A stretch of DNA of 64,000 nucleotides from Alphaproteobacteria bacterium (GCA_965205265.1 CBDBGH010000003.1:4768001-4832000), one strand, 5' to 3'. Counted from the first letter of the stretch, positions 2,128 through 63,516 are shown. Notes: a model not told the origin generated them from the letters alone. Numbers and translations: made by a program.

Positions 2128-3531
2128 ATGGCACGAGACAATGTCTTTTCCAACTTCGGCGGCGCCGGCCGCGGCAATCGCGGCGGCGGGAGGTCGCCCC
2201 GGGAGCCGGGATTCGGCCAGTCGGTGCTCTTGAAACTCGCCTCGGTCGACGAGGAGAGCAACACGCTTTCAGGCACGGTGATCGGCGGCAACCGCCATGG
2301 CGAGGAGGTCGAGGGCGTCAGCTTTATCGGGCGCACGAAGCCGAAGCACCTCCTGAAGAAGAACGCGCAGAGCTATATCGACCCGGCCCTCATCGAGGGC
2401 GGCAACGTCCACATGATCGTCGACCGGCTCGAGAAGAAGGACGGCAACGTCACGGCCCGGTGGATGCGCAAGGCCGGCGAGCATGTCGAGTACTCGACGC
2501 CCGACCACCCGAAGTGGATGGCCCTCGTTCCGATGAAGACGCCGTGGGCGGCCGACGACGACGAGCCGGAAGTGCCGCGTTACGGCGTGATGACGGTGGA
2601 TGTCGGCGGCGGCGCCGCGGCGCAGTCCATCGGGGATTTCCGCGAGGCCTTCGTGGCCGCGGCCAGCCAGCGCGGCGGGTTCGGCGCCGTGCATATGGTG
2701 ATGCACGGCGAGGCGGGCCGGCGTACCCAGATCGAGTATGCGCCGACAGGCGAACAGGCCGGGGTGCCGGGGAAGACTCCGGAGGAGCGGTTCGCGAGCT
2801 TCATGGAAGGCGTCGGCGGGGAGAAGGAGATCGCCGAGAGCTTCTCGAAGGGCTACACGATCACCGTGACGCCGCTGTCGATGCGCACGCTGTCGAAGTT
2901 CGAGACCACCCGCCTGATCGAGAGCGACAACCGGATGTCGGGCTTCACGCTGCCGTCGCACGGGTGGCGCCTTTCGTCCGAGATGCGCCGGGCGAAGGAG
3001 GAGGACCGCCAGAAGGTCAACGAGAACTTCCTGGCCTGGGCCGAGAAGAAGGGCTTCCGGGATGTGGAAAGCCTGCAGTCGGCCGAGAACCGTGTGGTCG
3101 AGCGCTTCGCGGCCGAGCACGGCGCGAAACTGCCGCGCATCGGCAATATCGGCTACCTGCCGGCCGGTTACGCGCTGCGTGACGCCGACGAGGACGGCCG
3201 CCCGCCGGCCCTGGTCACGAAGCTCGTGCCGACCGCGAGCCCGATCCCGGCGAACTTCGTGCCGGTCATCGGCGACGAGAAGGCGATGAGCCGGTACTAC
3301 GAGGCGTACCGCGATGCGGCGCGTGTGCTGCTCGCTGCCCCGGGCGTCGAGGCGGCCGTTGCGGAAACGGCGGCCGAGCGCGCAGCCGAGGTCGAGGCGG
3401 CCGAGGCGGCCGAGGTCGACGAGACGCTGAACGAGTTCGACGAGATGCTCAATGCAGCGGATTTCGGCCTGCCGGAAAACGAGGATCCGGGAGAGCCGGA
3501 CCCGTCTGACGAAGAACGCCCGGAGATGTGA
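2128..3531 (+). CDS. Hypothetical protein with acidic C-terminal tail
   Basis: Long ORF, AGGAG RBS before ATG 2128; ends DPGEPDPSDEERPEM. Confidence 0.7.
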   Translation: MARDNVFSNFGGAGRGNRGGGRSPREPGFGQSVLLKLASVDEESNTLSGTVIGGNRHGEEVEGVSFIGRTKPKHLLKKNAQSYIDPALIEGGNVHMIVDRLEKKDGNVTARWMRKAGEHVEYSTPDHPKWMALVPMKTPWAADDDEPEVPRYGVMTVDVGGGAAAQSIGDFREAFVAAASQRGGFGAVHMVMHGEAGRRTQIEYAPTGEQAGVPGKTPEERFASFMEGVGGEKEIAESFSKGYTITVTPLSMRTLSKFETTRLIESDNRMSGFTLPSHGWRLSSEMRRAKEEDRQKVNENFLAWAEKKGFRDVESLQSAENRVVERFAAEHGAKLPRIGNIGYLPAGYALRDADEDGRPPALVTKLVPTASPIPANFVPVIGDEKAMSRYYEAYRDAARVLLAAPGVEAAVAETAAERAAEVEAAEAAEVDETLNEFDEMLNAADFGLPENEDPGEPDPSDEERPEM

Positions 3532-3538
3532 TCCGGGC

Positions 3539-3577
3539 GCCCGGTCCGGCCCCGGCCGGACCGGGCCCTGTTTCCTT
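3539..3577 (+). terminator. Probable intrinsic terminator hairpin
   Basis: 12-bp stem GCCCGGTCCGGC/GCCGGACCGGGC just after the stop codon, followed by a weak T-tract (CCTGTTTCCTT). Confidence 0.5.
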
Positions 3578-3671
3578 GGCGCCGTCCCTCGGCGCAGGTC
3601 CCCGTTTTTGACATCAGGCTGCATCTGTCGGAAGGTTTCAGGCGGCGCCCAGGGGGGTTAGGAGGCCGACG

Positions 3672-6600: not shown

Positions 6601-9020
6601 CGCGGACAGCGGCCCGCGTCCATGAACGGCTCTACAAGGTGCGTGACCTCGATGGCGAGGTGCTCGACGGCAGGGATGTGGATGAGGAGCTGGTAGAGAT
6701 TTCCGATCGCATCCGGGCCAGGATTGCGGAGCTTCCGGACAACCTCCCGGTGTCCCCTGTCGACTTTGTCCGCGACGCCATAGAAGAGGCGGGTTATTCG
6801 TTCGGCGAGATTTCGGGCCGGGCCCTTCAGGTATCCGACGGGAATGTGGTCCCCCGTCGGCGCCCGCGCGGGCGCGATGTCGCGGCCGCGTTCAACAATG
6901 GCGATCTGGATGTCTTGGCATTCAATTCAGCCGGTGCGACCGGTACGAGCTACCATGCGTCGAGGGATTTCAGGGACCAGCGCCGTCGGGTCTTCATCGA
7001 ATATGAGGCCCCGCCCGATGTCCTGAAATATGTCCAGTCGCTCGGGCGCGGGAACCGCTACGGCCAGGTGGTTTCGCCGAAGATGGTGAGCATCGTCGCC
7101 GGCCTGGCTCCCGAATTGAGGCTGATGCAGCAGCGCAACCGCAAGCTGCGCCGGATGGGAGCCTCGGTCGATGCCAACCGCGAGCATCCCTATCTCGCGC
7201 GCAATGTGCCCGACCTTCTCAACAGGGTCGGCGACGAGGCGACGCTGCGGGTGCTCTCGATGGACCCGGCCCGGACGCATCGCCTGAGGCTCGGAGAATA
7301 TCTGACCGAGGGCGACGAATATGGCGGGGATGTGGACGGTTCGGCTCTGGAGAAGGCCCTGCGCGACAACATCACCAACAAGGTGCTCGCGCGGCTCGTC
7401 GTGCTGCAGCCGGACGAACAGCGCGACATAATGTCGAGGATCGAGGCGGAGTTCCAGGCGCTGGTAGGCGAACTGAATGCGCGCAACATGAACCCGCTCA
7501 CGATCCGGACGGTCCCGGGCCAGTTCGAGGTGAAGGGGGCCCATATCTACGAAGGCGACATGGCCGCGAATGACGACGAGCTGGACATTTCGTCCCTGCA
7601 GGCGCCGATCTGGGTGGAAACGGGATTGCAGCACCTGAACCGGGACGCCATGCCGGTGTCGCGGGTAATGGAGAATATCGAGCGGTCCCAGGTGGAGACG
7701 CCGACAGGGTTCCTGCAGTATGCGGACCGCCTTGAGCAGATCATGCCGGCGCTGCTGCTCGACCAGACAGGGACAACGCTTGAGGAGGCTCTCGACGATC
7801 CGGAGGGGCAGTCGCCGAAGTTTGCCGCCTTGCACCGGCGCTATACGGGGATGGTCGATCTGCTGCGCCGGATCCGTCCCGGGGTCGGAATCCGGATTTT
7901 CGAGGATGCCGGGACAACGCTGCCGGATGTGGACGGGTTCGTGACCCGGGTGATTCTGCCGTCGCGGTCCTCTGACGGCATGGTGTCGAGCCCGTCGAGC
8001 TACAGCATCGAGATCCTCGAGCCCGGCATGGAGATGCCGGCGCGATATACGCTGTCGACGCTTCTGCGCTGTCATCGTGCGGCGGTCGACCCGGGATTCT
8101 CGGAGGGGCCGTCGAAGAAGGCCGAGGAGGCGTTCGAGGCCGCCGCCAAGTCGCGGCGGCGACGCCCGCACCAGTTCATGACCGGCAATCTGCTCCACGG
8201 CATCCGGATTGCCAAGGAGAACAGGCTCGGCGCCGTCGTGGCCGTGGCGGGAGAGGACGGCAAGACGCGCCGGGGAATCATGGTCGAGCAGAGCCGGGTC
8301 ATGCTGGAGCATTTGCCGGTCCAGATGCCGGATGGCGAAACGGCGGCCGCGACAGTGCTGCTCAACGGCCTTCTCGACCCCGGCGCCCGTTTCGCGTGTT
8401 GGGAGGGCCGCCTGCAGCGGGACGCCAATATCAAAGGCTTCTACGAACCTGCAAGCGGCCGTATGGCGTTCGATGTTCCGGGCCGCAACGGCAAGATGCG
8501 GAATTGGTGGGAAGACCATCCGAAGACCCACCGGGCGCTGTTCGGGGGCCCGTTCGAGCCGGTTCGGGGCGAGCGGGCGTCCTGGCAGGGGATTGATGTC
8601 GGGGAAGCCACCCGAGCGGGGCTGATCGGGATCTTCAACGAGATGGTGAGCAGCCAGGGCCTTCAGGCCGATGCCGGCGCCCGCGCGATCATGCGCGAGG
8701 CGCAGACGGTCGTGCGGGCGGCCCGGCGCGAGGGGCGCGACTGGACCATGGAGGAACTGCAGGCGAAGGCCGATGAGATCAACGCGGCCCGCGCGGCAGC
8801 CGATGCGGCGGCCGTGGAGGCGGCGGCCGATGACGATCCGGGCGAGCAGGCCCGGCCGGACCCGGCGCCCCAGGCGGCCGCGCCTCCACCGCCTCCACCG
8901 CCTCCACCGCCTCCACCGCCTCCACGGGCGCCCCGCGAGGAGCCGGAGCCGGCCCGGGGCGGGCGTGTGCGGGAAGTGGAGCTTCCCGACGAGCTGGGCG
9001 AGATTCTGGATGTCGCTTGA
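3672..9020 (+). CDS. Strawberry-notch-like SF2 helicase/NTPase (AAA_34 plus helicase C-terminal domain)
   Basis: LTAEQVDAV...GFLLGDSTGIGKGR (motif I), ILDEAH (motif II), NSAGATGTSYHA and QSLGRGNRYGQ; GGAGG RBS. Confidence 0.88.
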   Translation: MEKVVSWIEFPGTSAVMRLAALPPGGNGRSRFAMILTPGDDPPGGLAAAAEGFGFTPLPGGRNWRYYGQAGRRLPKNTDLVEALPGAISVGVPQAEMYASDRFVDLRRQQARRRPRREAAADDGQQPNRKDLEELGRNHHGDLVVRDREGRFYRVTGEGERNPRYVMEKPTDPGPLFLRLREERDVAGLAAGLLKEMMLGDNRHMSVADIDRRAEVALDPAGRDDIPNLSPAELARMLAVDLHRRIVLGIAADGDPGSRRTQLRDGLKIAERSSRAIGGRLPDEESLVSSPEVTVLLRHALGAAERLEVTGSQRLADALAGLGGGGERADPDAQVIDLTGTGGVDVVGRVMAAIARRDAGGVTAVLVPGTPEDMVADNVREEVGKFYGVEAVAEIVPGLASGDPEGEPVTLLMFGERRPEEVEFLPEAAQRTYKAEGLDSLEALAVEIQRSRGRLREWFAGLEASPEERALEDSEAYVGYRPMSKVSEPFSMIPRSVEGAVVRAQERVARFYSDVGGIDNGVARELGLTREELGNRLTAEQVDAVGMVLEAASRGRGFLLGDSTGIGKGRTLQAIARAHLRNNGRVLVLTESPDTNIPDVFRDLGAVGLPEGRQAGVLATTQPFDWSNVNEAGDPEEQEMVPLGPVARRQLMEAAWAGREDVWPDGIDYLATTYSVLSSNMEMPGPAPDDAEEINEASRPPAYKKRVNRKPKNVDPDNPLNVTPQMVWAQRVVEQCEREGRPLMVILDEAHDALNPRSATGRVIRILKNGASAPPVYSTATSLREPRGVDLYDRLLPGDMSVPEVGLMLDTVIGGGEAAQESLTTMLTEDGVLLRREHDLSQLEFAVHVPSDAEIARCEDVMAQVGLIVEDMMAAYQKLKAPDGPTFRHFQRGGADLDFDDILTEWSTNLLGVGSPISALNGAALNALRAPMVVDAALGHLAEGHKPLIAFQSTNESVLREIYDADGVNEDMPMTFSRTAARVHERLYKVRDLDGEVLDGRDVDEELVEISDRIRARIAELPDNLPVSPVDFVRDAIEEAGYSFGEISGRALQVSDGNVVPRRRPRGRDVAAAFNNGDLDVLAFNSAGATGTSYHASRDFRDQRRRVFIEYEAPPDVLKYVQSLGRGNRYGQVVSPKMVSIVAGLAPELRLMQQRNRKLRRMGASVDANREHPYLARNVPDLLNRVGDEATLRVLSMDPARTHRLRLGEYLTEGDEYGGDVDGSALEKALRDNITNKVLARLVVLQPDEQRDIMSRIEAEFQALVGELNARNMNPLTIRTVPGQFEVKGAHIYEGDMAANDDELDISSLQAPIWVETGLQHLNRDAMPVSRVMENIERSQVETPTGFLQYADRLEQIMPALLLDQTGTTLEEALDDPEGQSPKFAALHRRYTGMVDLLRRIRPGVGIRIFEDAGTTLPDVDGFVTRVILPSRSSDGMVSSPSSYSIEILEPGMEMPARYTLSTLLRCHRAAVDPGFSEGPSKKAEEAFEAAAKSRRRRPHQFMTGNLLHGIRIAKENRLGAVVAVAGEDGKTRRGIMVEQSRVMLEHLPVQMPDGETAAATVLLNGLLDPGARFACWEGRLQRDANIKGFYEPASGRMAFDVPGRNGKMRNWWEDHPKTHRALFGGPFEPVRGERASWQGIDVGEATRAGLIGIFNEMVSSQGLQADAGARAIMREAQTVVRAARREGRDWTMEELQAKADEINAARAAADAAAVEAAADDDPGEQARPDPAPQAAAPPPPPPPPPPPPPPRAPREEPEPARGGRVREVELPDELGEILDVA
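8881..8925 (+). repeat. (CGCCTCCAC)x5 tandem repeat encoding poly-proline
   Basis: Five exact 9-bp units, in frame, near the helicase C-terminus. Confidence 0.95.
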
Positions 9021-11220
9021 CAAAACGGTCGGCACGGGCGGCGCCGGGGCTGTATTCCGGGAGACGGACACGGCGAGTCATATCCTGCTGCTGCGGGAGG
9101 AGGGCGACACCGGCGCGGGCGTCCTGTTCAGCCTGACGGAAGAACTGCCCTTTGCGCGCAGTGTGGAATTGGCCGGTTATGTCAACGCAAGGAACTATCT
9201 GGCCGATGTTCTGGGTCTTGATGGTGAAGACGGGACCCTGCGGGCGGAGATAGCCAGGCTGGTTCTGTGCCATATCGAGTCGCTGAACCTCGGTCCGCCG
9301 GGCGCGAGCGCCGAGCGGGGCCAGGAGAACTGGAACGACTTGCTCGGTGAGGATGCCGGGGAAGACGGCCTCATGAAGATCGAGGACCGCACCATGCAGG
9401 TCGATTCGGAGGTGTTCGAACGGGGTTGGGGGTCCCTTGCGCGCCCGGCCACGGAAAGCGGAACCGTTGTGCCAACCCCGTCCTACTGGGACAGCCGTTT
9501 GTCGGTCAGTCGGCCTCTGGACAGCTTCAGGGCGTTCAGGATGCTTCGCCAGGTGGCGGACAGGACCGGCGAGCCGGTCGCGCGGAAGATGCTGGAGGCC
9601 GTCGAGAAGCTCGATCTCGACAGCGCCTCGGAGGCGTTGAGGGCGGTCGGTGCGGCCGGGACCGGTGCGGCGAAGTATTACGGCGAGGAAGCGCCGGATT
9701 CCGCCGACCGTCGTCAGGCGGCCGGCACCTATCCGCTGTTCGCCGGCATGATTGCGCGCAGCACGACGCTCCAGAAGGCTGTAGCCGAGCGCGAACCGCT
9801 GCAGGCGGCGGTCCAGAAGATGACGGGACTGGCCCCTGCCGCGTTGCGTCGTCTGGCGAAAGTGGACCGTCCGCCACCCGCGGACCCGGTATTCGGGATC
9901 CATGAAGCGGCGCGGGGTGAAGATGCGCTCGGAATCGAACGCCGCCGGCTCTACGCGGTCTCGGGCCGTGCCGACATCGAGGATGCGATTCCGATGCTTT
10001 CGAAGCTCGATCCGTCCTGGGCGCCCGACAGCAACGAGGCGTGGGAGGCCTTCACCACGATCCTGGGGTCGGGGGTTCTCTCCCTGTCGATGATTATGGA
10101 CCGTCCGGCCGACGAGATTGTGAAGACATCGAAGGGGAACTGGACCGGATGGCTGAAGGCGCTCGCGAAGGACGCCGGCTACAACGACGAGAATCCGGTT
10201 GACCGGCGTCGGCTTTCATTGGCCATGTCGGACGCCGTTCAGGGAATCTATGAATTGTCCCAGCGCGTGCTGCTGCCACTGGCCCTGTCGTCGATCGAGC
10301 AACGCAAATTCGAAACGCCGTATGCCAGCGCCACCTATCTGGAAGCGGCGTTTCATGCGGGACTGTCGGTGGTTTGCGGGTCCGCGAAAAATCCCCTCGG
10401 GGCCCTGCTGGCCTTTTCGCGGAGCTATGTGTCGAGGATCGGCCATATAGAGGAGGCGGTCGCCGAAATAAACAAGGATATGGAAGCGCGGGGGATAACA
10501 AACGAAGCCTATCCGCCGGGCACCTGGCCGGCGATGTTTCGCGGCACGTTCGAACATAACGGCGTCGAGATCAGATGCATTACGTCCCGTGACGATCTCG
10601 TGAAGGAGGGCAGGGAGATGCATCATTGCGTCGGGGGCTATGTGGATGCCGGCGAGTCCGGGAAGTCGCATTTCCTGTCGGTGCGCGGACCCGGGCCGGA
10701 AGACAGGTCAACCCTACAATTCGAAGGCGAGGTGGAGCAGTATCTGCGAAAGCGGCAGCATTTCAGCTATTACAACGGCGATGTGACGCCGGCGCACGCT
10801 GCAGCCGTTCAGGCGCTGCGGCAGGCCATCACGAGCAAGATCCTGCCGCTCGATCCCAAATTGGCGGAATGGCGCCAGGAGGCGGCGGCCGGGAACCTGG
10901 AGCGGATGCGCCAGGATCGTTGGGGATGGGTGTGCAACATGGTCCGCCCGCAGGAGGGCGTGCCGGAGAAGCTGTGGCACGAATGGCGGGGGATTATCGG
11001 CGGTCGGGCCGCGAAGGCCGACAAACCGGGAATTCTCTACACGGATCCAAAGGTTCGCGACATGGTGAGGGTCCTGTCCCCGGTCGCCGCTTCGGTCATG
11101 GAGGATGAAGCCCGAAAGAGGGCCGAGGCCAGGGCAAGGGAGAAGGAAGAGGCCCTTCGGGCGGCCTCCGGAACAGAGCCCGCGCCGGCCGGCGAGGATG
11201 CGGCGCCCGCGCCGGCGTAA
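9010..11220 (+). CDS. PcfJ-domain protein
   Basis: LVKEGREMHHCVGGY...FLSVR...RSTL motif; ATG 9010 overlaps the helicase 3' end. Confidence 0.75.
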   Translation: MSLDKTVGTGGAGAVFRETDTASHILLLREEGDTGAGVLFSLTEELPFARSVELAGYVNARNYLADVLGLDGEDGTLRAEIARLVLCHIESLNLGPPGASAERGQENWNDLLGEDAGEDGLMKIEDRTMQVDSEVFERGWGSLARPATESGTVVPTPSYWDSRLSVSRPLDSFRAFRMLRQVADRTGEPVARKMLEAVEKLDLDSASEALRAVGAAGTGAAKYYGEEAPDSADRRQAAGTYPLFAGMIARSTTLQKAVAEREPLQAAVQKMTGLAPAALRRLAKVDRPPPADPVFGIHEAARGEDALGIERRRLYAVSGRADIEDAIPMLSKLDPSWAPDSNEAWEAFTTILGSGVLSLSMIMDRPADEIVKTSKGNWTGWLKALAKDAGYNDENPVDRRRLSLAMSDAVQGIYELSQRVLLPLALSSIEQRKFETPYASATYLEAAFHAGLSVVCGSAKNPLGALLAFSRSYVSRIGHIEEAVAEINKDMEARGITNEAYPPGTWPAMFRGTFEHNGVEIRCITSRDDLVKEGREMHHCVGGYVDAGESGKSHFLSVRGPGPEDRSTLQFEGEVEQYLRKRQHFSYYNGDVTPAHAAAVQALRQAITSKILPLDPKLAEWRQEAAAGNLERMRQDRWGWVCNMVRPQEGVPEKLWHEWRGIIGGRAAKADKPGILYTDPKVRDMVRVLSPVAASVMEDEARKRAEARAREKEEALRAASGTEPAPAGEDAAPAPA

Positions 11221-12589: not shown

Positions 12590-14505
12590 CCTGACTTCGA
12601 CGGTTGATTCGCATAAGTAGTTGATATTGCCTGGTTCTCATTTCGGCTAGGCACTACATCCGGCATTTCTTCGAGCCGTGCTTCGTCGACGGTCAGGCGA
12701 GTTGATACGGGGTGATCGTCAGGGGCAGCCCCATGGTTGCGTAAATCTGCTCCGCCGCCGGTGTCGGCTTCGAGGGGATGACGTAGCGGTTGCCCGATTG
12801 CCGACAGCGCAGCAGGGAGCACTGGCGGTGGACGAGGGCGGAGCGGATGACCTCCGGGGACATCCGCCGCTTCTGGATGGCGACGCGGTACGCAAGGTGT
12901 CGAACGCAGGCGAAGGCCAGGAAGGCGATGGCGATGTGAGCGCGGATCCGGTCCGGGTTCCAGTGCCAGATGGGACGTATCTTCAGGTCGTGTTTGGTGA
13001 TCCGGAAGCTCTCCTCGACCTGCCAGAGCCCCTGGTAGTGAGCCATCACTTCGGTGACGCGCGCGTCGCGCAGATTGGTGATGACGCCGGTGAGCCCGTC
13101 CCATCGTGCGGCCTCGGCGATCTTCTCCGGGTTCACCGTGAGCCGTGCGTCGCCCTCGACGGCGATGAAGCGCTTCGCCCCGTGATTGGAGAGCAGTTCC
13201 CTGGGATTGTCGCTGCGGGCCAGCCTGTCGAGCAGGCGTTCCACCTGATGGCGGCGCTCGTGCGCGTCCTTGCGTGCGCGCTGGGGGCAGAAGACGACGA
13301 TCAGGCGACGGCCCTTGTACTCCCACTCGCCGACCCGGCGGTCCTGTGAGCCCTCCAGCGGGGCATAGGTCCCGGGGTCGAGAACCTGCCCCAGCAGCGC
13401 GAGCGGCAGCTTGCGCAGCCGCGCGCCGACGACATACTCGCCGCCGATGGCGTCCATGGCGTCGAGGTTGTCGGCGCTCAGCATGCCCCGGTCGGCCACG
13501 CATACCGTGCGCTCCACCTGGTGGCGGCGCTGCATGTCCTGCAGGACCGGGACCATGCTGTGTCCCTCGTAGGTGGCGCCGGGGAAGACCTCGTAGCTGA
13601 TCGGCAGCCCTTCGCGCGTCACCATCAGCGCCAGCAGAACCTGCGAGTCCTTGTGTTTGCCGTCCTTGCTGAAGCCGTGCTGGCGAAGCTCGTCCTCGGC
13701 GGCCGTCTCGAAGTAGAGCGTGGTGCAATCGAAGAAGAGGATCGCGACCGGCTCCGGCAGCAGCGACCGGCTCGCCTCGCCGACGCGCGTGCGCAGTCGC
13801 TCGATCACCGTCGCGTCGAGCTGATCCATCATCCGGTAGACCTTCTCGAGCGGAAGACTCACGCCGAAGTCCTCCTCGAGCCGGCGCACGCTGCCCCGCT
13901 TGCTGTCGGGGTTGGCTACCCGCGCCATCACCACATGGAACAGCGCGTCATGGGAGGCCCGGTAGCGCGAGCGCGGCAGCAGCGCGTCGAGGCCCAGCAG
14001 CCGGTAGATCTCGCCATAGACCTCGTGGATGCCTGTGATCAGGCGCTGCTCCTCTTCAAGCTGCTTGAGGTCGACCGGGAGTTCCTCCTTGCCGTCCCCC
14101 CGGCGGCCGACACGGATCGCCTGCTCAGCGATCTTCTCGGGCGCAAACAATGCCGGCTGACGCTCGTCCTCCAGCTTCGCCTTGACGTACTCGCCGAGCT
14201 GCCTCAGGCGCTCGAGCTCGTCCTCGTCCATGGCCACGCCGACATGGCGGACGATGCGCTGTCGGACCTTGCCGCCGTCGCGCACGGCCTCGACGATCTG
14301 GACCGAGCGTCGCGGGCTGTTGGGGGAGGTCTTGATGCGCACGAACATGGGGGGAGTGTAGCGCGTGGCGGAGGCATTGACAGTCTCAAAGATTTACTAG
14401 GCACTACAACGCAGCTTGACCGCACCGCAACTGCCAACTCATTGGCTTTACTGAAAACTCCAGACGCGAGATCGGTCAGAAGTCAGCCCAACCGTCGAAG
14501 TCAGG
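12590..14505 (-). mobile_element. IS1634-family insertion sequence, copy 1 (1916 bp)
   Basis: 17-bp terminal inverted repeats CCTGACTTCGACGGTTG/CAACCGTCGAAGTCAGG; 6-bp target duplication ACCTTT (12584-12589, 14506-14511). Confidence 0.95.
12693..14348 (-). CDS. tnp: IS1634-family DDE transposase
   Basis: FFDCTTLYFE, GFSKDGK, VADRGM, Y..LWQVEESFRITK, RPIWHW...RIRAH. Confidence 0.95.
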   Translation of the reverse strand: MFVRIKTSPNSPRRSVQIVEAVRDGGKVRQRIVRHVGVAMDEDELERLRQLGEYVKAKLEDERQPALFAPEKIAEQAIRVGRRGDGKEELPVDLKQLEEEQRLITGIHEVYGEIYRLLGLDALLPRSRYRASHDALFHVVMARVANPDSKRGSVRRLEEDFGVSLPLEKVYRMMDQLDATVIERLRTRVGEASRSLLPEPVAILFFDCTTLYFETAAEDELRQHGFSKDGKHKDSQVLLALMVTREGLPISYEVFPGATYEGHSMVPVLQDMQRRHQVERTVCVADRGMLSADNLDAMDAIGGEYVVGARLRKLPLALLGQVLDPGTYAPLEGSQDRRVGEWEYKGRRLIVVFCPQRARKDAHERRHQVERLLDRLARSDNPRELLSNHGAKRFIAVEGDARLTVNPEKIAEAARWDGLTGVITNLRDARVTEVMAHYQGLWQVEESFRITKHDLKIRPIWHWNPDRIRAHIAIAFLAFACVRHLAYRVAIQKRRMSPEVIRSALVHRQCSLLRCRQSGNRYVIPSKPTPAAEQIYATMGLPLTITPYQLA

Positions 14506-16078: not shown

Positions 16079-17794
16079 ATGAGCGTGCAGGAGCATTGGG
16101 AGGAGCTGAAGGACGCTTTCCTGCGGGTAATCGGACGCCCGCGCTCGACGGTGCGCCTGATTCGTCGTCACGAGCTGATAGACGAGGAATTCATGTCGAT
16201 GTGCGCGCCCTGGTCGGACGGGCGCGTGATGATCCTGAAAGGGTTCGGCAACAACGACAAGCTGCATGCGGTCCTGAACGAACTCGTGGCGGCCGGGGAG
16301 GTCGCCCGACCGGTCAAGAAAGAGGAGACCACGGCGGAGGAACTGCGGAATGTCTGGGCCGGACGTCCGGTCCAGTTTGACGAAGGGGACCCGGAGATCC
16401 GGAAACGGATCAAGGCGATCTTCACGGATGCCGCGGATGCGAAGGCCTCGGACGTGATGTTCGAGCTCTCCGACGAGGCCTGCGACGTCTTCGTGATAGC
16501 GAATGACAAGAAATTGCGCCTGGGCGAGCGCATGACCGTCGCCATGGGCGAGCGTATGATGGGGTTCCTGTTCCACATCAGGGATGCCGGGTCGGCCCAG
16601 ACCAGCTATCAGCGCGGTTCGTTCCAGGGGTTCAGTCTGCGCAACCGCAAGGGTTTCCCGTTGCCGGAGATAATTTCCGGCCTGCGATGCCAGCGCGGTC
16701 CGCACGAGCCGGAACGCGACCACATGTTCTGCCGGATTTTCTATCGGAACCAGATTCCGGAGAACATTACGCTGGAGTCGCTGGGTTTCAGTCGGGATCA
16801 GGCGGATATTTTCGCGGAGATCCGGCAGAGCCTGCAGGGTGCCGTGTTCATCGGCGGAACGACCGGCGACGGAAAATCGACGACGCTGGCGGCGAACATG
16901 CAGCTCCAGTTCAATGAGAACAACGGGGAGGTGAATCTCGTAACGGTGGAGGATCCGGTCGAGTATCCGATCCCCGGGGCGGTGCAGATCGCCGTGCCCA
17001 CGACGGGCTCGGGCGAGGAGCGCGCCAAGCATTATGTCCAGGCGCTGATGCACTTCTGCCGGGTCCACCCGGCCTCGGGAATGGTGAGCGAGATACGGGA
17101 CGGTGACGCCGCCCGGCAGGTCCTGCAGTTCGTCGATTCCGGCCACCAGGTGTGGACGACCATTCACGTTTCCAACGCCAATTCGATCCTGTTCCGGCTT
17201 ATCGACCTGGGCGTGAATCCGGGCGAGGTCTGCAAACCCGGCAACATCGCCCTGCTGGCCCAGCAGACGCTGGTTCCGATGCTTTGCCACAGTTGCCGTC
17301 TCGACGAGTCGACGGTCCCGGTGCCCAACCGTCTGGCGGATATCCTGAAAGACTGGAAGAAGGTCTATTACCGCAACCCGAAGGGTTGCACGGTATGCAC
17401 GCCAAAGGATGCCAAGGCGACGAAGGCCGCCGCCTGGGCGGGTTACCAGCGTCCGAAAGTCATCGCGGAGATGATTCGGCCGGATGCGGGCTATCTGGAA
17501 TTCGTGCGCGACCGCAACGCGAGCGGGGCCCTGGACTACTGGATCAGCGAGATGAAGGGCCTGCCGCTCGACGCGCAGATCTGGAGAGAGATTTTTCTCG
17601 GCAATGTCGACCCGATCGACGGCACGAGAAAGGGGGCGACCTATCGTGAAGGCAGGGCCTATGGGGATCGGGTCAGGCGCGAATATCTCCGGGTGTGGAA
17701 GGAGTCGGGGCACGAACCTGAGGCCCTCGGCCAGTTCCTGCGGCCGTCCGGTCTTGTGGCGGAGGAGGAAAAGGGCCGCAGCGCGGCGGCCTGA
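16079..17794 (+). CDS. pilQ: Type IV pilus assembly ATPase (PilQ/GspE family)
   Basis: ASDVMFE, GGTTGDGKSTT, TVEDPVEY, SEIRD, SGHQVWTTIH, CxxC motifs. Confidence 0.85.
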   Translation: MSVQEHWEELKDAFLRVIGRPRSTVRLIRRHELIDEEFMSMCAPWSDGRVMILKGFGNNDKLHAVLNELVAAGEVARPVKKEETTAEELRNVWAGRPVQFDEGDPEIRKRIKAIFTDAADAKASDVMFELSDEACDVFVIANDKKLRLGERMTVAMGERMMGFLFHIRDAGSAQTSYQRGSFQGFSLRNRKGFPLPEIISGLRCQRGPHEPERDHMFCRIFYRNQIPENITLESLGFSRDQADIFAEIRQSLQGAVFIGGTTGDGKSTTLAANMQLQFNENNGEVNLVTVEDPVEYPIPGAVQIAVPTTGSGEERAKHYVQALMHFCRVHPASGMVSEIRDGDAARQVLQFVDSGHQVWTTIHVSNANSILFRLIDLGVNPGEVCKPGNIALLAQQTLVPMLCHSCRLDESTVPVPNRLADILKDWKKVYYRNPKGCTVCTPKDAKATKAAAWAGYQRPKVIAEMIRPDAGYLEFVRDRNASGALDYWISEMKGLPLDAQIWREIFLGNVDPIDGTRKGATYREGRAYGDRVRREYLRVWKESGHEPEALGQFLRPSGLVAEEEKGRSAAA

Positions 17795-17800
17795 AGCGTC

Positions 17801-18841
17801 ATGGTGAAATCGATCCAGAAACTTCTGGCGGCGGGGACCGACCAGCGCATAGACACGTTCTACATGATCGAGGGGCTTTTGCTGGCGGGCATAGACCTCT
17901 CGCGCGTGCTGAACACGGTCTCCAGGGCCGCGGCCGCCCGGTCCGACAATTCGACCGTGGCCATGATGGAGTACTGGCAGGATGCGCTGGCCAATTCCCG
18001 GTTCCCGGAGGAAATGACCTACTGGGCGCCATCAAGCGAGGCGGTGGTGTTCCAGGGCTATGGCCTGGGCCGGATATCGGCTGCCGAACTGTTCAACGGG
18101 GCAGCAAGGATCGCCACCCTGAAGGCGAAACTCATCAGCGAGGTGATGAAGGCGTGCATCATGCCGATCCTTCTGACGGTGGGCTGCTTCGTCATGTTGT
18201 GGATGGCGGGCGGCAACATGTTGCCGGCCCTGGAATCGATTTCCGACCGCTCGTCCTGGGGTCTGATGACGATCATTGTCACGGACGTCTCGAAGTGGGT
18301 GTATGCCAACACCATTCTGGTCGTGGCGATAATCGGCGCGGTCATTGCGCTTTTCTGGGTCGTCACGGTGGCATATGCCGGGCCGGGCCGACGGGCGATG
18401 GACCGCCTGCCGCCGTTCTCGATCTACAAGCTGGTGACCGGCTGCTCCTTCCTGATCGTGGTGCTGGAGTTCGTCCGGGTCGGCCAGGAACTGTCCAGCC
18501 GGTTCTTCACGCGGCTGGAGGAGACTTCCTCTCCTTATGTGAGGTCGCGGATCCGGGCCGTGCGGGCGAACATGGCCAGGGGAGACCAGTTCGGCGCCGC
18601 GATGAAGGCTTCCGGGAACAATTTCCCCGATGCCGGTCTGATCGCTGTCGCCGAGGCGCTTGACGGGACGCCCGACTGGAATGTGGAACTCGGGAAATTC
18701 ATGGAGCGGTGGATCGAGCGTTCGGAGCGCACGCTGAAGTCCCGCCTGGGACTCATGCGGAACATATTGTTCGTGGTGGTTGCGGTGATTCTGGGATCGC
18801 TGGTCTCGGCGATGTTCGACGTCATGTCGCAGGTGCAGTGA
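17801..18841 (+). CDS. pilR: Type IV pilus inner-membrane platform protein (PilR/GspF family)
   Basis: Three hydrophobic segments; PPFSIYK and G..FPD motifs; follows pilQ. Confidence 0.8.
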   Translation: MVKSIQKLLAAGTDQRIDTFYMIEGLLLAGIDLSRVLNTVSRAAAARSDNSTVAMMEYWQDALANSRFPEEMTYWAPSSEAVVFQGYGLGRISAAELFNGAARIATLKAKLISEVMKACIMPILLTVGCFVMLWMAGGNMLPALESISDRSSWGLMTIIVTDVSKWVYANTILVVAIIGAVIALFWVVTVAYAGPGRRAMDRLPPFSIYKLVTGCSFLIVVLEFVRVGQELSSRFFTRLEETSSPYVRSRIRAVRANMARGDQFGAAMKASGNNFPDAGLIAVAEALDGTPDWNVELGKFMERWIERSERTLKSRLGLMRNILFVVVAVILGSLVSAMFDVMSQVQ

Positions 18842-21069: not shown

Positions 21070-21573
21070 ATGAAGCGAATTCGGCTGCTCCTGTGCTTGT
21101 CGTGCCTGGCGGCCCTGGGAGGCTGCGAGCTTCTCCGGGAAAAACCGGCAATGGAGCCGGCGCAGTCGGCGGAGGGGCTGGCGATCGATCGGGTGATCGC
21201 GTCCGCCATGGAGCGGGCGTCGGAGGCCAACAGCAAGGTCGCGGGCGCGGAGGCGGCGATCATCGCCCCGGAGCGGGCCGGCCCGGGGCAGGAAGTTCCG
21301 CCCGGCGTGAGAGTGCCTCCGGAAATCAGCCAGTCCGTCGATATAGACTGGCAGGGTCCTGTCGAGCCGATGCTGGCGGCACTTGCGGACCGGGCCGGGT
21401 ACGAGTTCCGCGTGGTCGGCGCGGCGCCGGCGACACCGGTGACCGTGAATATCGTTCGCGAACGCACGCCGCTGGTGGAGATCCTGCGCGAAACCGGCAT
21501 CACGATCCACGAACATGGCGACGTGGCGCTGTCTCTCGCCGCTCGCCGGATAGAACTGCGGTACGGTCCGTGA
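21070..21573 (+). CDS. dotD: DotD/TraH lipoprotein
   Basis: Lipobox LGGC; IDWQGPVEPMLAALADRAGYEF; C-terminal RRIELRY. Confidence 0.85.
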   Translation: MKRIRLLLCLSCLAALGGCELLREKPAMEPAQSAEGLAIDRVIASAMERASEANSKVAGAEAAIIAPERAGPGQEVPPGVRVPPEISQSVDIDWQGPVEPMLAALADRAGYEFRVVGAAPATPVTVNIVRERTPLVEILRETGITIHEHGDVALSLAARRIELRYGP

Positions 21574-21602
21574 GGGCCGGACCCGGAAGGAGGTACCCGC
21601 TG

Positions 21603-22538: not shown

Positions 22539-22554
22539 CGCAGAGCCTGTCGCC

Positions 22555-30255: not shown

Positions 30256-30474
30256 ATGGACGCTCCGGCCTTTCAGTGCATGACGTGCCGTGCGCCCATA
30301 TCCGAGGAGCGGTTGCGCGAGCGGATGAAGAATCCGCCGGGGCAGTGCGACAATTGCGGCGGCGTGGCGATTCTCCAGGCCGACGGAGGAGAGAGGCTGA
30401 AGGAAATCGCCTCGGAGGTCGGCGTCGGGGTAATGGACGTCGATATGGGCCGTTTCAGGTGGCCGGCATCATGA
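30256..30474 (+). CDS. Small zinc-ribbon protein
   Basis: CMTC...CDNC; GGAGG RBS. Confidence 0.6.
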   Translation: MDAPAFQCMTCRAPISEERLRERMKNPPGQCDNCGGVAILQADGGERLKEIASEVGVGVMDVDMGRFRWPAS

Positions 30475-52177: not shown

Positions 52178-52387
52178 ATGGGGCGACGGAAACAGCGGGA
52201 AGAGCGAGAGATCCGGGCCGTGGTCACGGTGAGGGCGCCTGCTCCCCACGCCGCGCGGATCCGCGCCTGCTGGCTGTCCGCGCTCGAGAAGATGGTTGCC
52301 AGGACGCTCGGCGTCGGACATGGCGATATCCGGGTCATATTGACGGCGGCCCCGCGCGGCGCCGCCGTCGGGAGGTATCGCGGGTGA
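52178..52387 (+). CDS. Small hypothetical protein
   Basis: Lies in the operon; stop overlaps the next GTG. Confidence 0.45.
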   Translation: MGRRKQREEREIRAVVTVRAPAPHAARIRACWLSALEKMVARTLGVGHGDIRVILTAAPRGAAVGRYRG

Positions 52388-52995
52388 TCTTTCTGGAAAA
52401 GAGAAGCGAGTGGGCCACAAACGGGCTGGCTGTCGCCTTCCTTCTGGTTGTGGCCCTGCCCGGGGTCGGGCCGGACAGCGCCGCTGCGTTGACGGGAGCG
52501 TTCAACGTCGGGTTGCTGAGCCTGGTCGGGTTGGTCTTCGTCCAGAATGTGATGAGCGTGTTGCTGGAAACGGAGCGTGACGGTCTCGTCCTGGGCCAAT
52601 GGTATTCGAGCACCTGGGCGCCGTTGAGGGTCGTCCTTGTTGTCGCAGCCCTCGCCCCGGTGCCCGGGGCGGGAGGGTTGAGTGGGGTTCAGGTCCTGGC
52701 CGGCCATGCTGCCGGCATTGGCGGCGGGGAGATGTCGGCCGCCGCCTCCGCCGCGATCCTCTGGGGCCTGTGGGGGCTGGCGGGCGCCGCTTGGATTGTC
52801 TGGTCGGTGAGGTCCGGCCTGACAATCCGGTCGGCCGTTCTTCATCTGAGGGGCGTGCGCAGCCGTTTGTCCGAGAGTCCGCGGTGGTGGCTTCTGGTCC
52901 CTGCTTTCCTTGTTTCCATCTGGTTGGTGGGGGGGATAGCGGTTACAGCACTAGCCATGTTTTTTGCCATTCCTCACCCAGGGACCGGAGGGTGA
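52384..52995 (+). CDS. Membrane protein resembling the N-terminal part of DotA/TraY
   Basis: FNVGLL...ETERDGLVLGQWYSSTWAPLRVVL...PVPG.GGLSGVQ matches the DotA/TraY N-terminal signature. Confidence 0.6.
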   Translation: MIFLEKRSEWATNGLAVAFLLVVALPGVGPDSAAALTGAFNVGLLSLVGLVFVQNVMSVLLETERDGLVLGQWYSSTWAPLRVVLVVAALAPVPGAGGLSGVQVLAGHAAGIGGGEMSAAASAAILWGLWGLAGAAWIVWSVRSGLTIRSAVLHLRGVRSRLSESPRWWLLVPAFLVSIWLVGGIAVTALAMFFAIPHPGTGG

Positions 52996-53000
52996 CGGCG

Positions 53001-53603
53001 ATGGAGACCGCCCATGACATGACCTGGCTTGAGCGGGAGCTGGTGCCGCCGTCATGGAGCGGGCTGGATATCGCGCACCGCGTGGCGGGGCCTGAGGACA
53101 AGGTCCACCGGCGCCTGCGCGAGGCGGTGTCCGTTCCCGTCAGGCGCCATCTCTGGGTTCCGGAAGACGCGGTGGAGTTCACGCCGGCGCTCTCGGACGT
53201 GGTCTATGGCGACGGGCGGGCCCTGCTCGCCATCACGACCATCCATGACCGCCCGCGCTATTGGCTGGTGCGCATCGACAGCTCCTGGCCGCTCTGGCTC
53301 GATCCCGGGCTTCCGGGCGGGGACGATGAGGAGATGGCGGACTATTGCGAACACATCACCGAGAATCTTCGTCTCGAATTCGGGGACGGGGAGCCGAGGT
53401 GGGATGAAGACGAGTGGGAGGACGAGGAGGATCCGGTGGCCCGGGAATACGGCCTCCCCTATCCGTCCATCGATCTGAGGGACGGCTACTCCTGGCGGCG
53501 GGAATCCTGGCCGGAGGCCGGGTTCGACGGTGTGCCGCATCCGTATGACCCGCATATCCGCATCCTGCCGGAGACGCAACCGGCGGTGGAGCCGGGGCCG
53601 TGA
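53001..53603 (+). CDS. Cargo paralog family B, member 1
   Basis: RVAGPED..HRRLREA, LSDVVYGDG.ALL, WLVRID, HI.ENL..EFGDG shared with the next gene. Confidence 0.75.
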   Translation: METAHDMTWLERELVPPSWSGLDIAHRVAGPEDKVHRRLREAVSVPVRRHLWVPEDAVEFTPALSDVVYGDGRALLAITTIHDRPRYWLVRIDSSWPLWLDPGLPGGDDEEMADYCEHITENLRLEFGDGEPRWDEDEWEDEEDPVAREYGLPYPSIDLRDGYSWRRESWPEAGFDGVPHPYDPHIRILPETQPAVEPGP

Positions 53604-59532: not shown

Positions 59533-59560
59533 TCGTGGAAGGAGCATTACGGTCGTGAAC

Positions 59561-61139: not shown

Positions 61140-61206
61140 CCGGGAGGGCGGAAGATATCCCGGGTCCCGAGGTTCCAATCACATCCAGACAAGAAAGCCT
61201 TCGAGT

Positions 61207-62058
61207 ATGACAAGTCCCGCTTCAACGCCCCTTGCCGGGCCGCACATTTCGACGACAGTGAAATGGTATGACCCGGCGAAGGGCTACGGGTTCCTGATTC
61301 CCGATGACGGTTCGGCTGACATTCACTGCCGAATTTCGACATTGAGCGCCGTCGGCCTGGGCACGCTTCTCTCCGGGGCGAGGGTCGTGTGCGAGACGGT
61401 GGAGACCCAGCGCGGGCGTGAGGTCTCGCGGATCCTGAACATCGACTTCTCGGCGGCGGCGCCAGCGGCGGCCTCTTCCACGCGCGCCTCAGGCAACGGG
61501 CGTCCTGCCAACGAGCGGGGCATGGTTTCGGCCGGCGCCGACGGGACGGTCCGCGAGGTCCGGGCGTTCGTCAAATGGTTCGACACCGTCAAGGGCTACG
61601 GCTTCCTGCAGCCCGACGACATGTCTGCGGACCTGTTCTGCCATGTGAGCGCCTTGCAGGGGTCCGGCCAGGACACGCTGCCGGAGGGCGCGGCCGTAAC
61701 CTGCATGGTCGTCCGGGGCGACCGGGGTCCCCAGGTATCGAGAATCCTCTCGGTCGAGCCGCCGGTCGCCGTTTCCGGCGCGGCGGACCGCAACGGGTCC
61801 TTCGCTGCCCGGGAGCCGGTCCCGCAGACGGACGGTCTCGGGGCAACAGACATGGAGGTATCGGGCACGGTCAAGTTCTTCGATCCGGTGAAGGGGTTCG
61901 GCTTCGTCGTGCCGGACGAGGATGGGCCCGAGGTGTTTGTTCATGCCAGCGTGCTGTTCCGTTCCGGCATGACCGATCTGGAACCGGGGCAGCGGGTCTT
62001 GGTGTTTGCGGAAAGCGTGCCGCGCGGACTTCAGGCTACGGGCATAGAGCCACTCTGA
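61207..62058 (+). CDS. Cold-shock protein with three CSD domains
   Basis: VKWYDPAKGYGFL, VKWFDTVKGYGFL and VKFFDPVKGFGFV, each followed by an RNP2-like motif. Confidence 0.9.
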   Translation: MTSPASTPLAGPHISTTVKWYDPAKGYGFLIPDDGSADIHCRISTLSAVGLGTLLSGARVVCETVETQRGREVSRILNIDFSAAAPAAASSTRASGNGRPANERGMVSAGADGTVREVRAFVKWFDTVKGYGFLQPDDMSADLFCHVSALQGSGQDTLPEGAAVTCMVVRGDRGPQVSRILSVEPPVAVSGAADRNGSFAAREPVPQTDGLGATDMEVSGTVKFFDPVKGFGFVVPDEDGPEVFVHASVLFRSGMTDLEPGQRVLVFAESVPRGLQATGIEPL

Positions 62059-62078
62059 AGGCATTACGGGCGAGCGTG

Positions 62079-63272
62079 ATGAAGGAATTCGGAATGATGG
62101 AAGATCGGGATTTGCGGCTCTCGCTCGCCCGGAGCGCGCTGGTGCTGGGCGTCGTCCTGATGTTGAGCCGGCACCATGGGACCGACTGGATCCTGATTCA
62201 GGCGGGGTCGTACCTGCTGTGGATGATCTCGGTTCTGTTCATGGAGGCGGGCCGGAACCGGGAGAAACGCGAAGGTCCGGGGCGCTGGCCCCGGTCGGTG
62301 GCTCTGTGGGGAAGGATTTTCGAATTCCTGACGCGGCGCGACATGCGTGTAACCGGCTGCCTTGTCATCTTCGGCATCGAGGTGCTGCGGGAAAATGTAA
62401 TTCTGATGGGGGGATGGGATTTTCCCCTGGAATCCGGATCGGGGCCCCTGGAGACGGCCTGCGCTGCGCTGGCCGTGCTTCTGACAGTGCTTGCGGGCGC
62501 GAGGGACGGAGAGCTTGTCGCCCGGGCGTTGCGCCGTCATGGATGGCGCGTCCCGCTTGTCGTGTCCGGCGGGAGGGGGCGACGGAAGGAGAGAGCGGAA
62601 TACTGGGTTGGCGGTTCCGTGAACGCGATGGCGTGCGAGGCGCCTGCAGCCCGTCTGGAACTGGAAGCGTCCCTCATCTGGAGCCTGATCCTGTCGGGCA
62701 TCGCATTTACGGCGCTGGCGCCGGCGGGCCCGCAAGAGGCGCTGGTCCATCTGGCGGTTGTATATCTGGTCGCGGCGGCTGCGGCCCAGGGTGCCAGGTG
62801 GACTCTTGCCTGGACCCGGGCGGCAAGACCGCGCTTGAACCGGTGGTTCGGGGAACTGGTCGAGTTGTCCGGCCACTGGGACATCCGGCCGCTGGCCGCG
62901 CCGGTTGCCCTGGGCGCCCTGGTGGCGGTTGCGGCCATGATGGCCGACGTTGTGGCGATATTGGAAGCGAGGCCTCCTCCGACGGAGAATGCGGACAAGG
63001 AAGCCCTGATGAGAGCGCAGATGGATTCTCGGCTATGGCTGTCCGCTTGGTCTGCGGCGGTTCACGATGCCGACAGGGCCTATGCGTTCCTGGTCAACGG
63101 AATGCCTGTCCTTGTTGCCTTCTCCGGTTGGCACGACAGCATGTGGAGAGCCGCGGCAGTGAGTGAGACCGGTTCTTCGGATTGGCGGGCCTGGCGGCGC
63201 CGCCAACGCGACATGCGTTGGCGCAGATGGTTGCGTCTCGGTCCGGAACCGGAGGGAGCAGGCCATGCATGA
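62079..63272 (+). CDS. Multi-pass membrane protein
   Basis: Several hydrophobic segments; lies in the operon. Confidence 0.6.
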   Translation: MKEFGMMEDRDLRLSLARSALVLGVVLMLSRHHGTDWILIQAGSYLLWMISVLFMEAGRNREKREGPGRWPRSVALWGRIFEFLTRRDMRVTGCLVIFGIEVLRENVILMGGWDFPLESGSGPLETACAALAVLLTVLAGARDGELVARALRRHGWRVPLVVSGGRGRRKERAEYWVGGSVNAMACEAPAARLELEASLIWSLILSGIAFTALAPAGPQEALVHLAVVYLVAAAAAQGARWTLAWTRAARPRLNRWFGELVELSGHWDIRPLAAPVALGALVAVAAMMADVVAILEARPPPTENADKEALMRAQMDSRLWLSAWSAAVHDADRAYAFLVNGMPVLVAFSGWHDSMWRAAAVSETGSSDWRAWRRRQRDMRWRRWLRLGPEPEGAGHA

Positions 63273-63516
63273 GGTGCCCGCCAGCGGCCGCGAGCAGGAT
63301 TACCGGGATGCCGTGAAGCTGCTTTTCAGACTCCAGGAGATGCTCCGGGCCGTCCCGCTCGAGATTCTTTTCGACGAATGCGGAGTATGCCCCGAGAAGT
63401 TCGGCGAGCTCATGGGCGAGCACGCGCGCTATCTGGTGACAGAAAAGGGTCTGGTTGCCGAGGCGCTCGACTCGTGGACACCATATCCGGAGGAAATTCA
63501 GGGACCCGGACCGTAA
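63265..63516 (+). CDS. Small acidic protein
   Basis: GGAG RBS; ends EEIQGPGP. Confidence 0.55.
   Translation: MHEVPASGREQDYRDAVKLLFRLQEMLRAVPLEILFDECGVCPEKFGELMGEHARYLVTEKGLVAEALDSWTPYPEEIQGPGP

Follow-up and report, generated by a model that had tools for sequence, protein, structure and literature searches.

The window analysed here, a 64,000-nucleotide stretch of DNA (G000:C3:4,768,001-4,832,000) from an alphaproteobacterial genome, lies inside an integrated element of approximately 587 kb, and more than 100 of the proteins encoded by this element share a short C-terminal tail, most often with proline at the last and third-last positions. The tail is real, confined to the element and many-fold wider in its distribution than the nine proteins of the window in which a first-pass annotation had noticed it. 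It is under selection at the amino-acid level and, judging from the sequences, it is probably, if far from certainly, a recruitment signal for the coupling complex of the type IVB secretion machine that the element encodes.

Enrichment and shape of the tail

The genome (5.70 Mb, approximately 68% GC, three contigs) was searched for genes with a codon log-odds model trained on 797 long open reading frames (ORFs) and a greedy choice of non-overlapping ORFs, which gave 5234 genes; the C-terminus is set by the stop codon alone, so that errors in the choice of start are immaterial to tail counts. Island counts below refer to C3:4,768,000-5,320,000 (560 genes) and are compared with the remaining 4674 genes. 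The nine C-termini of the form P-[EGQ]-[PLM]-stop given in the first-pass annotation were all as listed when read from the called genes, and its near matches (A1, a 281-residue protein and PcfJ, together with DotD ending in RYGP) were correct too. The comparison of replicon with remaining genome that it proposed gave a strong enrichment, with 33/560 island genes against 6/4674 others (odds ratio 49, p = 7e-27). This strict motif occurs in 10 of the 67 genes overlapping the window and in 29 of 5167 elsewhere, 23 of those 29 being located in C3:4.85-5.30 Mb, and in neither of the plasmid-sized contigs C1 and C2 (0/178 and 0/46). Outside the island its rate is 0.13% in this 68% GC genome. In a 100-kb profile, the excess of tails starts at the window and stops near 5.32 Mb.

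The motif as first written is present, but too narrow. Among 73 distinct proteins ending in P-x-[PLM], the residue at -2 (counting the last residue as -1) is one of S, G, E, A, T and Q, that at -4 is in most cases G, E, A or S, and D, E and A abound from -5 to -10, with E/D commonest at -8, -6 and -5. Many tails end 1-3 residues past the P-x-P. P-x-P directly before the stop is found in 54/560 island genes vs 25/4674 in the rest, P-x-P within the last six residues in 103/560 vs 87/4674, and LP[ES]P within the last twelve in 21/560 vs 1/4674. A composite definition (P-x-P in the last six residues, or P-x-L/M-stop) covers 118/560 island genes and 99/4674 elsewhere (odds ratio 12, p = 1e-60). Proline stands at -1 and at -3 in 21-22% of island proteins vs approximately 7% of others, with overall proline at 5.6% in both sets, and only 1.2 C-terminal matches are expected from the internal tripeptide frequency. 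An artefact of gene calling is ruled out, as the enrichment stays when only high-confidence genes (score of at least 60, at least 200 residues) are counted (16/250 vs 5/2966). The position-specific enrichment is limited to the last approximately 12 residues. The tails are poor in Arg, and over their last 16 residues the 73 P-x-[PLM] proteins average a net charge of -1.74, vs +0.15 in the rest of the genome.

Paralogy, DNA context and selection

All-against-all BLASTP with single linkage grouped the 560 island proteins into 357 families, the largest of which (named after Pfam) are the pentapeptide-repeat (n = 47), ankyrin-repeat (n = 28) and DUF6878 (n = 27) families. These three give 54 of the 118 tails; the other 64 lie outside them. 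At least one member with P.[PLM]-stop is present in 37/357 families, and a P-x-[PLM]-stop ending is found in 24 of the 309 singleton families, as compared with 0.79% per gene in the background (p = 1.5e-16). Although paralogues have diverged to a median identity of 30-37%, a few columns of the DUF6878 alignments are nearly invariant, and these include the tail prolines along with one Trp and one Gly of the fold. In the codon logo, fixation is limited to the CC of both Pro codons, the wobble bases and the middle codon being variable, and the 18 bases 3' of the stop have no conservation in tailed genes. Inverted repeats of at least 7 bp across the stop are present in 8/73 tailed and 23/449 untailed island genes (p = 0.06). 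The tail is thus under selection at the amino-acid level, because singletons carry it, because its prolines are nearly invariant amid diverged paralogues and because there is no conservation at the DNA level beyond the CC of the Pro codons. Paralogy alone is ruled out by the single-linkage families and the singleton test, and a DNA-level origin by the codon and downstream logo together with the rarity of inverted repeats.

The tail as an appended module

Several comparisons place the tail beyond the conserved part of the proteins. The first-pass annotation had said so of proteins in the window, rightly: Pfam matches stop at residue 371 of 723 in the topoisomerase-like protein, and the DUF5131 domain at residue 349 of 379. 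Island copies of the Uma2 nuclease and RNase H align to within 2-12 residues of the end of their chromosomal paralogues and then run on for 15-19 residues with the tail. The ORF with canonical DUF6878 was read in 6 of the 7 other genomes of the class that match the domain (all but L042), and in each of the six it ends at the domain without a tail. The 13 closest relatives of the Thg1-like protein of the window (55-64% identical, all metagenomic) end in FGWRD.. and none of them is tailed, and among 120 proteins listed for it, the island's own included, 3 fit the pattern; its tail is a local acquisition. In the AlphaFold model of one DUF6878 paralogue (168 residues; mean pLDDT, the model's per-residue score, of 92), the domain scores above 95 up to the last strand at residue 139, and the last approximately 28 residues are without secondary structure, with pLDDT dropping to 62. 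The P-x-P tail is therefore placed as Dot/Icm signals are, in an unstructured stretch within the last approximately 20-30 residues. Taken together, these alignments and the model argue that the tail is an added module on an unstructured extension beyond the conserved domains.

Proteins with and without the tail

Tails are carried by 20/28 ankyrin-repeat, 19/47 pentapeptide-repeat, 15/27 DUF6878, 4/7 A-family (a family with four members, A1-A4, in the window) and 4/6 Uma2 proteins. Single tailed proteins belong to Fic, SNase, RNase H, Macro+NADAR, DUF2958, NTP_transf_8, Pol-beta nucleotidyltransferase, DUF3085, HTH_3, SocA/Panacea, D12 methylase and RecD2, and the topoisomerase-like, Thg1-like, DUF5131 and PcfJ proteins of the window are tailed as well. 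The earlier wording 'unrelated proteins' is borne out by these many unrelated domains, but it does not hold for A1-A4, which are paralogues. No tail was found among the 58 members of the insertion sequence (IS), IstB, TnpB, DUF3991, UPF0236 and integrase families, intron-associated ones included, and only one among 19 type IVB or pilus proteins, an fn3 protein ending in APAPR; the first-pass observation that pilus, Dot/Icm structural, GapR and transposase proteins lack the tail is supported.

Transmembrane (TM)-like segments are present in 9/118 tailed proteins vs 84/404 untailed island proteins (p = 6e-4) and 1188/4674 proteins in the rest of the genome, and the tailed proteins are accordingly predicted to be mostly soluble and cytoplasmic. 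The cargo is weighted towards nucleic-acid enzymes (acting in RNA repair or ADP-ribose removal, or as nucleases and methylase), which would suit establishment or anti-defence in a recipient; the 28 ankyrin-repeat and 47 pentapeptide-repeat paralogues would equally suit effectors against eukaryotic or rival cells.

The element and its type IVB machine

Based on RpoD, which is 56-65% identical to alphaproteobacterial matches (at least 80 listed) with Rhodospirillales-like records among the closest listed, the host is an alphaproteobacterium. A direct repeat of approximately 2.2 kb (177 + 1992 identical bases), which includes an integrase gene, occurs at 4,734,317 and 5,320,871, a spacing of 586,554 bp. 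The element so delimited (G000:C3:4,734,317-5,323,042, approximately 587 kb) contains the window, the tailed genes belong to it, and it has the integrase and flanking direct repeats of an ICE (integrative conjugative element). It is among the largest integrative elements known to us, and it may be composite, given additional integrases near 5.157-5.162 Mb. A TrwC relaxase and TrwB (L028) lie just left of the left repeat, outside the element.

Between the repeats, Pfam and NCBIfam matches reveal an IncI-like (MPF_I) type IVB set with the core components: TraQ, DotG/TraO, DotH/TraN, DotI/TraM, DotD/TraH, DotC/TraI, DotB/TraJ, IcmT/TraK, DotA/TraY, TrbC/DotL, TrbA/DotM and thin-pilus genes. The DotO/TraU position is taken by a TraC-like ATPase of 1022 residues with a weak match. 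Both partners of the DotL-DotM pair are present at C3:4,924,915-4,930,259, a TrbC/DotL-like protein of 1163 residues and a DotM/IcmP-like protein of 591 residues. The coupling protein is 32-36% identical to the TrbC/DotL of MPF_I plasmids of Methylorubrum, Rhizobium, Xanthomonas, Thalassospira and Bosea. For the element's DotM, no match was found in the 40 relatives searched and no close relative in a search of genome contigs; Pfam DotM_C matched in 27/400 other genomes of the class, all of 1.1-4.1 Mb (the tally includes the unpublished genome G064). A complex predicted for the cytoplasmic part of DotM (residues 235-470) and the C-terminal 41 residues of a DUF6878 protein scored 0.00, which is uninformative either way.

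The DotL/TrbC-like protein (L005:14110-17598, minus strand) has an insertion of approximately 303 residues (residues ~138-440) right after the Walker A lysine, with the junctions GTTGSGK|ALPLD...VTTHN|TELL. This insertion is a probable intein, because it is without counterpart in the Bosea homologue. The DotL homologue of Methylorubrum extorquens AM1 (L140:19770-23720, 1317 residues) matches LAGLIDADG_3 at residues 378-426. Interspersed with the island's type IVB and pilus genes is one for an M48 peptidase that has a PDZ domain (L027:4664-5593, plus strand).

Tails in relatives and on other replicons

Used as a profile in an exhaustive search, the DUF6878 paralogues gave 2219 matches, and among the stored foreign ones 15 of the 24 best-scoring are tailed vs 2 of the next 105, with endings such as DPAVEPQP, DLPEPTPS, GLPEPRPDGL, DDMAPGP and EADAPSL. 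Ten of the tailed foreign proteins were looked up and all are metagenomic, three being encoded on one contig of 302,850 bp and two on one of 188,107 bp. Word-indexed searches found two foreign relatives each for DUF6878 and the A family. P0003, 78% identical to one paralogue, ends in LPSPSPGD (LPGPSPGA in the island), P0274 (56% identical to A4) ends in DAEADPEP, and P0275, a relative of A2, in ETGLEPG. The tail is kept in relatives elsewhere.

Similar endings were found beside homologous coupling proteins. On the megaplasmid of M. extorquens AM1, a stretch of 43 kb surrounding the DotL-like gene has 33 called genes, 9 of which fit the tail pattern. Seven of the nine come from an array of approximately 11 paralogues just upstream of that gene (L140:5659-16474, minus strand), which are approximately 350 residues long, 21-48% identical to one another and without Pfam match; most end in GPRP, GPKP, APKP or PGPVP. 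The array is unrelated to DUF6878 (hhalign probability of 0.5%). In the two 50-kb flanks 2/37 and 6/46 genes fit the pattern, among them other proteins with the endings EEDAAPGPRP, SLGPRPGG and DPAPGPR. Around the coupling gene of the Bosea plasmid pANAM02, 6 of 31 annotated proteins fit, e.g. with APGPR and APGPRIK. These tails suggest, as supporting evidence, that the feature recurs beside homologous coupling proteins and is not a one-off. An M50 peptidase with a PDZ domain (L140:4507-5598, minus strand) lies beside the AM1 array. An [AS]-P-[LVI] motif between -28 and -7, shared by DUF6878 and the AM1 array, was considered as a general second, upstream motif and rejected, as it is present in 5/118 tailed and 16/404 untailed proteins.

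Proposed role of the tail and rival explanations

In the recruitment role that we favour, soluble cytoplasmic cargo would bear a short, unstructured, acidic C-terminal extension ending in P-x-P or, less often, in P-x-L/M, the coupling complex of the DotL/TrbC-like ATPase and its DotM/TrbA-like partner would recognise this tail, and the cargo would then enter another cell through the IncI-like Dot/Icm channel. Within this proposal, the target is somewhat more probably a recipient or rival bacterium than a eukaryotic host. We favour it because the tail is C-terminal, flexible, acidic, modular, kept under selection and carried by soluble cargo-like proteins, because the Dot/Icm-like channel is the element's only recognisable route for cytoplasmic proteins, and because the tail recurs beside homologous coupling proteins. 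Legionella DotM is reported to bind acidic Glu-rich C-terminal peptides, and the authors of that report raise the possibility that in other species DotM has co-evolved to bind tails of another kind (PMC5802825). The first-pass claim of a type IVB translocation signal is upheld in so far as the tail is real, selected, confined to the element, acidic and found on soluble cargo and not on machinery; recognition and translocation are the parts that we infer. Its further claim, delivery during conjugation, is suited by the nucleic-acid-enzyme cargo, but meets the difficulties of mobility given below.

Several observations weigh against a recruitment signal. The defining feature is Pro at -1/-3, unlike the Glu run at -10 to -17 of the Legionella E-block. 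The untailed closest relatives of the Thg1-like protein (0/13) imply that related elements need not use the tail, and within the island the composite pattern is failed by 28/47 pentapeptide-repeat, 8/28 ankyrin-repeat and 12/27 DUF6878 proteins. Of 71 proteins from the surroundings of the type IVB genes that were scanned with NCBIfam, none matched the IcmS/IcmW adaptor, divergent adaptors being possible. The AM1 and Bosea counts cover only the neighbourhoods of coupling genes plus the two AM1 flanks. The PDZ peptidases near type IVB genes, here and in AM1, fit another reader of the tail. As for conjugation in particular, no relaxase family was matched by Pfam among the island proteins scanned (65 + 150 + 150 + 135), and PLSDB types both the AM1 megaplasmid and pANAM02, the two plasmids whose coupling proteins are closest, as non-mobilizable.

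Such another reader is the subject of the first rival explanation, in which the tail is a short linear motif for a partner outside secretion, which would retain, process or degrade the proteins in the donor and could be a chaperone, a protease adaptor or a PDZ peptidase. Free C-termini are ligands of PDZ domains, which makes candidate readers of the M48 peptidase among the island's type IVB and pilus genes and of the M50 peptidase directly beside the AM1 GP[RK]P array; the island also encodes a ClpS paralogue. However, the PDZ domains of M48 and M50 peptidases usually face the periplasm, whereas few tailed proteins have signal-peptide-like or TM-like segments (9/118) and most would be cytoplasmic, and ClpS reads N-termini. 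We consider this explanation unlikely. A still less probable one starts from the slow termination after Pro in Escherichia coli: a Pro codon before the stop would allow the element to tune or couple expression of its cargo, perhaps through its own paralogue of release factor 2 (RF2; prfB, 70% identical to the chromosomal copy). Terminal Pro codons are indeed common in tailed genes, but slow termination leaves unexplained the Pro at -3, the acidic stretch, the P-x-L/M variants and the tails running 1-3 residues past P-x-P, and stop codons are used alike in tailed (40 TGA, 9 TAG, 5 TAA) and untailed island genes (319, 114 and 35).

The two remaining explanations deny the tail a function of its own. 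It might reflect descent within a few expanded families together with Pro/Ala/Gly-rich extensions that arose by stop-codon drift in GC-rich DNA, and the three large families do supply nearly half of the tails, with A1-A4 being paralogous too. This is disfavoured by the singleton and conservation tests, given that tails abound in singletons and outside the three families, that Pro -1/-3 is fixed although paralogues are only approximately 30% identical, and that the rest of this GC-rich genome has so low a rate of the motif; moreover, the tails are acidic and Arg-poor, unlike random GC-rich read-through. We regard it as very improbable. Alternatively, the tail could be the by-product of a DNA element over the stop codon (for instance a terminator hairpin, a cassette boundary or a site of recombination). 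A few stops do lie within inverted repeats (e.g. 5297623-5297994), but 65/73 tailed genes have none across the stop, untailed island genes have them at a rate of 23/449 (p = 0.06), and in the two Pro codons fixation stops at the second base. The codon and downstream logo largely refutes this explanation, which is the least credible of the four.

If recruitment to the coupling complex is the role of the tail, which is enriched approximately 50-fold on one element, the substrates of an IncI-like system could be predicted from sequence and put to the test. Type IV substrates outside Legionella, Coxiella, Bartonella, Agrobacterium and Xanthomonas are largely uncharted, one reason being that there is no simple signal. 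The cargo suggests an establishment or counter-defence toolkit of unusual size, with possible DNA mimics (pentapeptide-repeat proteins), RNA-repair enzymes, Macro/NADAR proteins, nucleases and Fic; the alternative is an effector repertoire in an alphaproteobacterium of free-living size. More tentatively, and with some doubt, we suggest that the acidic P-x-P tail could represent an undescribed class of type IVB signal on an arsenal of more than 100 proteins, and that GP[RK]P tails might serve homologous DotL/DotM systems of other alphaproteobacterial megaplasmids. Were this true, genome sequence could directly reveal the substrates of an entire clade of 'conjugative' MPF_I systems.

Gene content of the window

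The proteins with the strict tail, the near matches and the untailed machine genes of the window are as follows (window positions, strand):

2128-3531, plus: protein of 467 residues and no known family, ending in EERPEM; without Pfam/NCBIfam match and without tblastn match in PLSDB plasmids
26231-28402, minus: divergent Toprim/topoisomerase protein, 723 residues, ending in QEEPQP
29346-30182, plus: A2, A-family paralogue, ending in LSDPGL
33494-34633, plus: third DUF5131 paralogue, ending in PEEPEL
39647-40399, minus: Thg1-like protein, ending in RGSPEP
40673-43433, plus: A3, A-family gene interrupted by a group II intron; reverse transcriptase/maturase at 41349-42866, 3' part at 42921-43433 ending in EAGPEP
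43518-44357, plus: A4, A-family paralogue, ending in EADPEP
45547-45684, plus: duplicated 3' piece of A4, 45 residues, with the same tail and downstream DNA as A4; beside the IS at 46028-47683
52992-53603, plus: B1, 203 residues, no known family, ending in AVEPGP
63265-63516, plus: protein of 83 residues, ending in IQGPGP
28515-29330, plus: A1, A-family paralogue, near match AGLEP
30459-31304, plus: protein of 281 residues, near match PAPEGP
8965-11220, plus: PcfJ-like protein, near match AAPAPA
1-1769, plus: 3' part of the VirB4/TraC-like ATPase of 1022 residues (DotO-like position), without tail
16079-18841, plus: thin-pilus ATPase (T2SSE) and platform protein (T2SSF), without tail
21070-24330, plus: DotD, TraI/DotC, DotB/TraJ and IcmT/TraK of the type IVB machine, without tail

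A3 had been taken as a tailed protein in the first-pass annotation; its EAGPEP end is right, but it is the end of one gene that the group II intron has split. The intron (reverse transcriptase/maturase of 505 residues) has an identical copy splitting a DUF350 gene (L001:8344-11161), and the upstream exon frames of A3 and of the DUF350 gene both read through to ...SPAGRRR. A tblastn search of A4 against PLSDB plasmids gave no match. Directly upstream of B1, a 203-residue ORF (52384-52992, plus strand) matches only the N-terminal approximately 100 residues of DotA/TraY and is a fragment or short paralogue of it; DotA/TraY is present at full length at L006:2518-4992.

Other features of the element

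The island has second copies of a number of housekeeping genes (identity to the chromosomal copy in brackets), namely DnaA (39%), RpoD (60%), DnaG (55%), GyrB/ParE-like (78%), RecJ (76%), RNase H (69%) and ClpS (91%), and also encodes DnaB, DciA, a class II ribonucleotide reductase, ThyX and LexA. We attribute the 7.3% 'contamination' figure of the genome to this duplication. In the island prfB (L021:8875-9858, plus strand, read with approximately 200 bases upstream; C3:5,227,9xx) the frameshift site is CTT TAG C, where the chromosomal prfB has the usual CTT TGA C; the UAG at the island site would be read by RF1, not RF2. A tRNA-Ile with the anticodon TAT (L018:15302-15376, plus strand) adjoins a Rep3-type initiator gene (L018:13889-15091). 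The cas genes of the island comprise a Cas9 locus with Cas1/Cas2 and genes of the GSU0053/GSU0054 type; three Slam (SlipAM) proteins and RNA ligases are encoded too, as are several HipA, Fic and AbiE modules. ISs have colonised the island heavily: one with a DDE transposase of 551 residues has at least 12 identical copies, those in the window being at 12693-14348 (minus strand) and 46028-47683 (plus strand), and IS21-like units (501-residue transposase, IstB and a 292-residue DUF3991 protein) are repeated.

Comparison with known systems

The Dot/Icm signals of Legionella and Coxiella are reported to lie, like the island tail, in the last approximately 20-30 residues, to be unstructured and net acidic, and to occur on many unrelated soluble proteins, including ankyrin-repeat proteins (PMC5802825). 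Homologues of DotL and DotM are likewise encoded by the island genome. Unlike those signals, the island tail is defined by the Pro residues that occupy -1 and -3, right at the carboxyl end, and its Glu/Asp are modest in number and nearer to the end (-5 to -11), with no long Glu run, whereas the E-block is Glu-rich at -10 to -17. Other differences are the unmatched IcmS/IcmW among the 71 proteins scanned and a machine of the IncI/MPF_I plasmid kind; furthermore, the island tail is known from sequence alone.

Transfer of IncI1 plasmids moves the Sog primase. More generally, conjugative type IV systems are described as carrying element-encoded proteins into recipients (PMC8406263, PMC11288057). 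This transfer (ParA, ParB, SSB and PsiB of F; the 'conjutome') resembles our case in the use of the element's type IV system and in the proteins of DNA metabolism and establishment, and differs in that the abstracts mention no simple shared terminal motif, whereas the island has more than 100 proteins with one motif (PMC8406263, PMC11288057). It also differs in the relaxase, which is unmatched inside the island element in the proteins scanned. For the type IVB system of Pseudomonas putida IsoF, we know of neither a shared tail nor a large repertoire. That system, which like ours is found outside Legionellales, is described as killing bacteria via a protein effector delivered into them, and unlike ours has a single toxic effector in the abstract (PMC9519443).

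PEP-CTERM/exosortase proteins share with the tail a Pro-Glu-Pro near the C-terminus. In that system, however, a TM helix and a basic cluster follow the PEP and an N-terminal signal peptide is present, whereas in the island PEP is the last tripeptide, no helix follows, TM-like segments are found in 9/118 and signal peptides are lacking, and the tail is thus not of this type. The Rickettsiales amplified genetic element (RAGE) and other ICEs are alike in being integrative conjugative elements with many ankyrin-repeat genes, and RAGE is unlike in its F/Ti-like type IV system and in an abstract that has no shared P-x-P tail (PMC10732058). None of the titles and abstracts listed by full-text literature searches describes a P-x-P C-terminal signal for type IV secretion. 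C-terminal type IVB signals as such are already known; the P-x-P motif, its extent over at least 37 families and more than 100 proteins, and the setting in an integrative element of approximately 587 kb are not.

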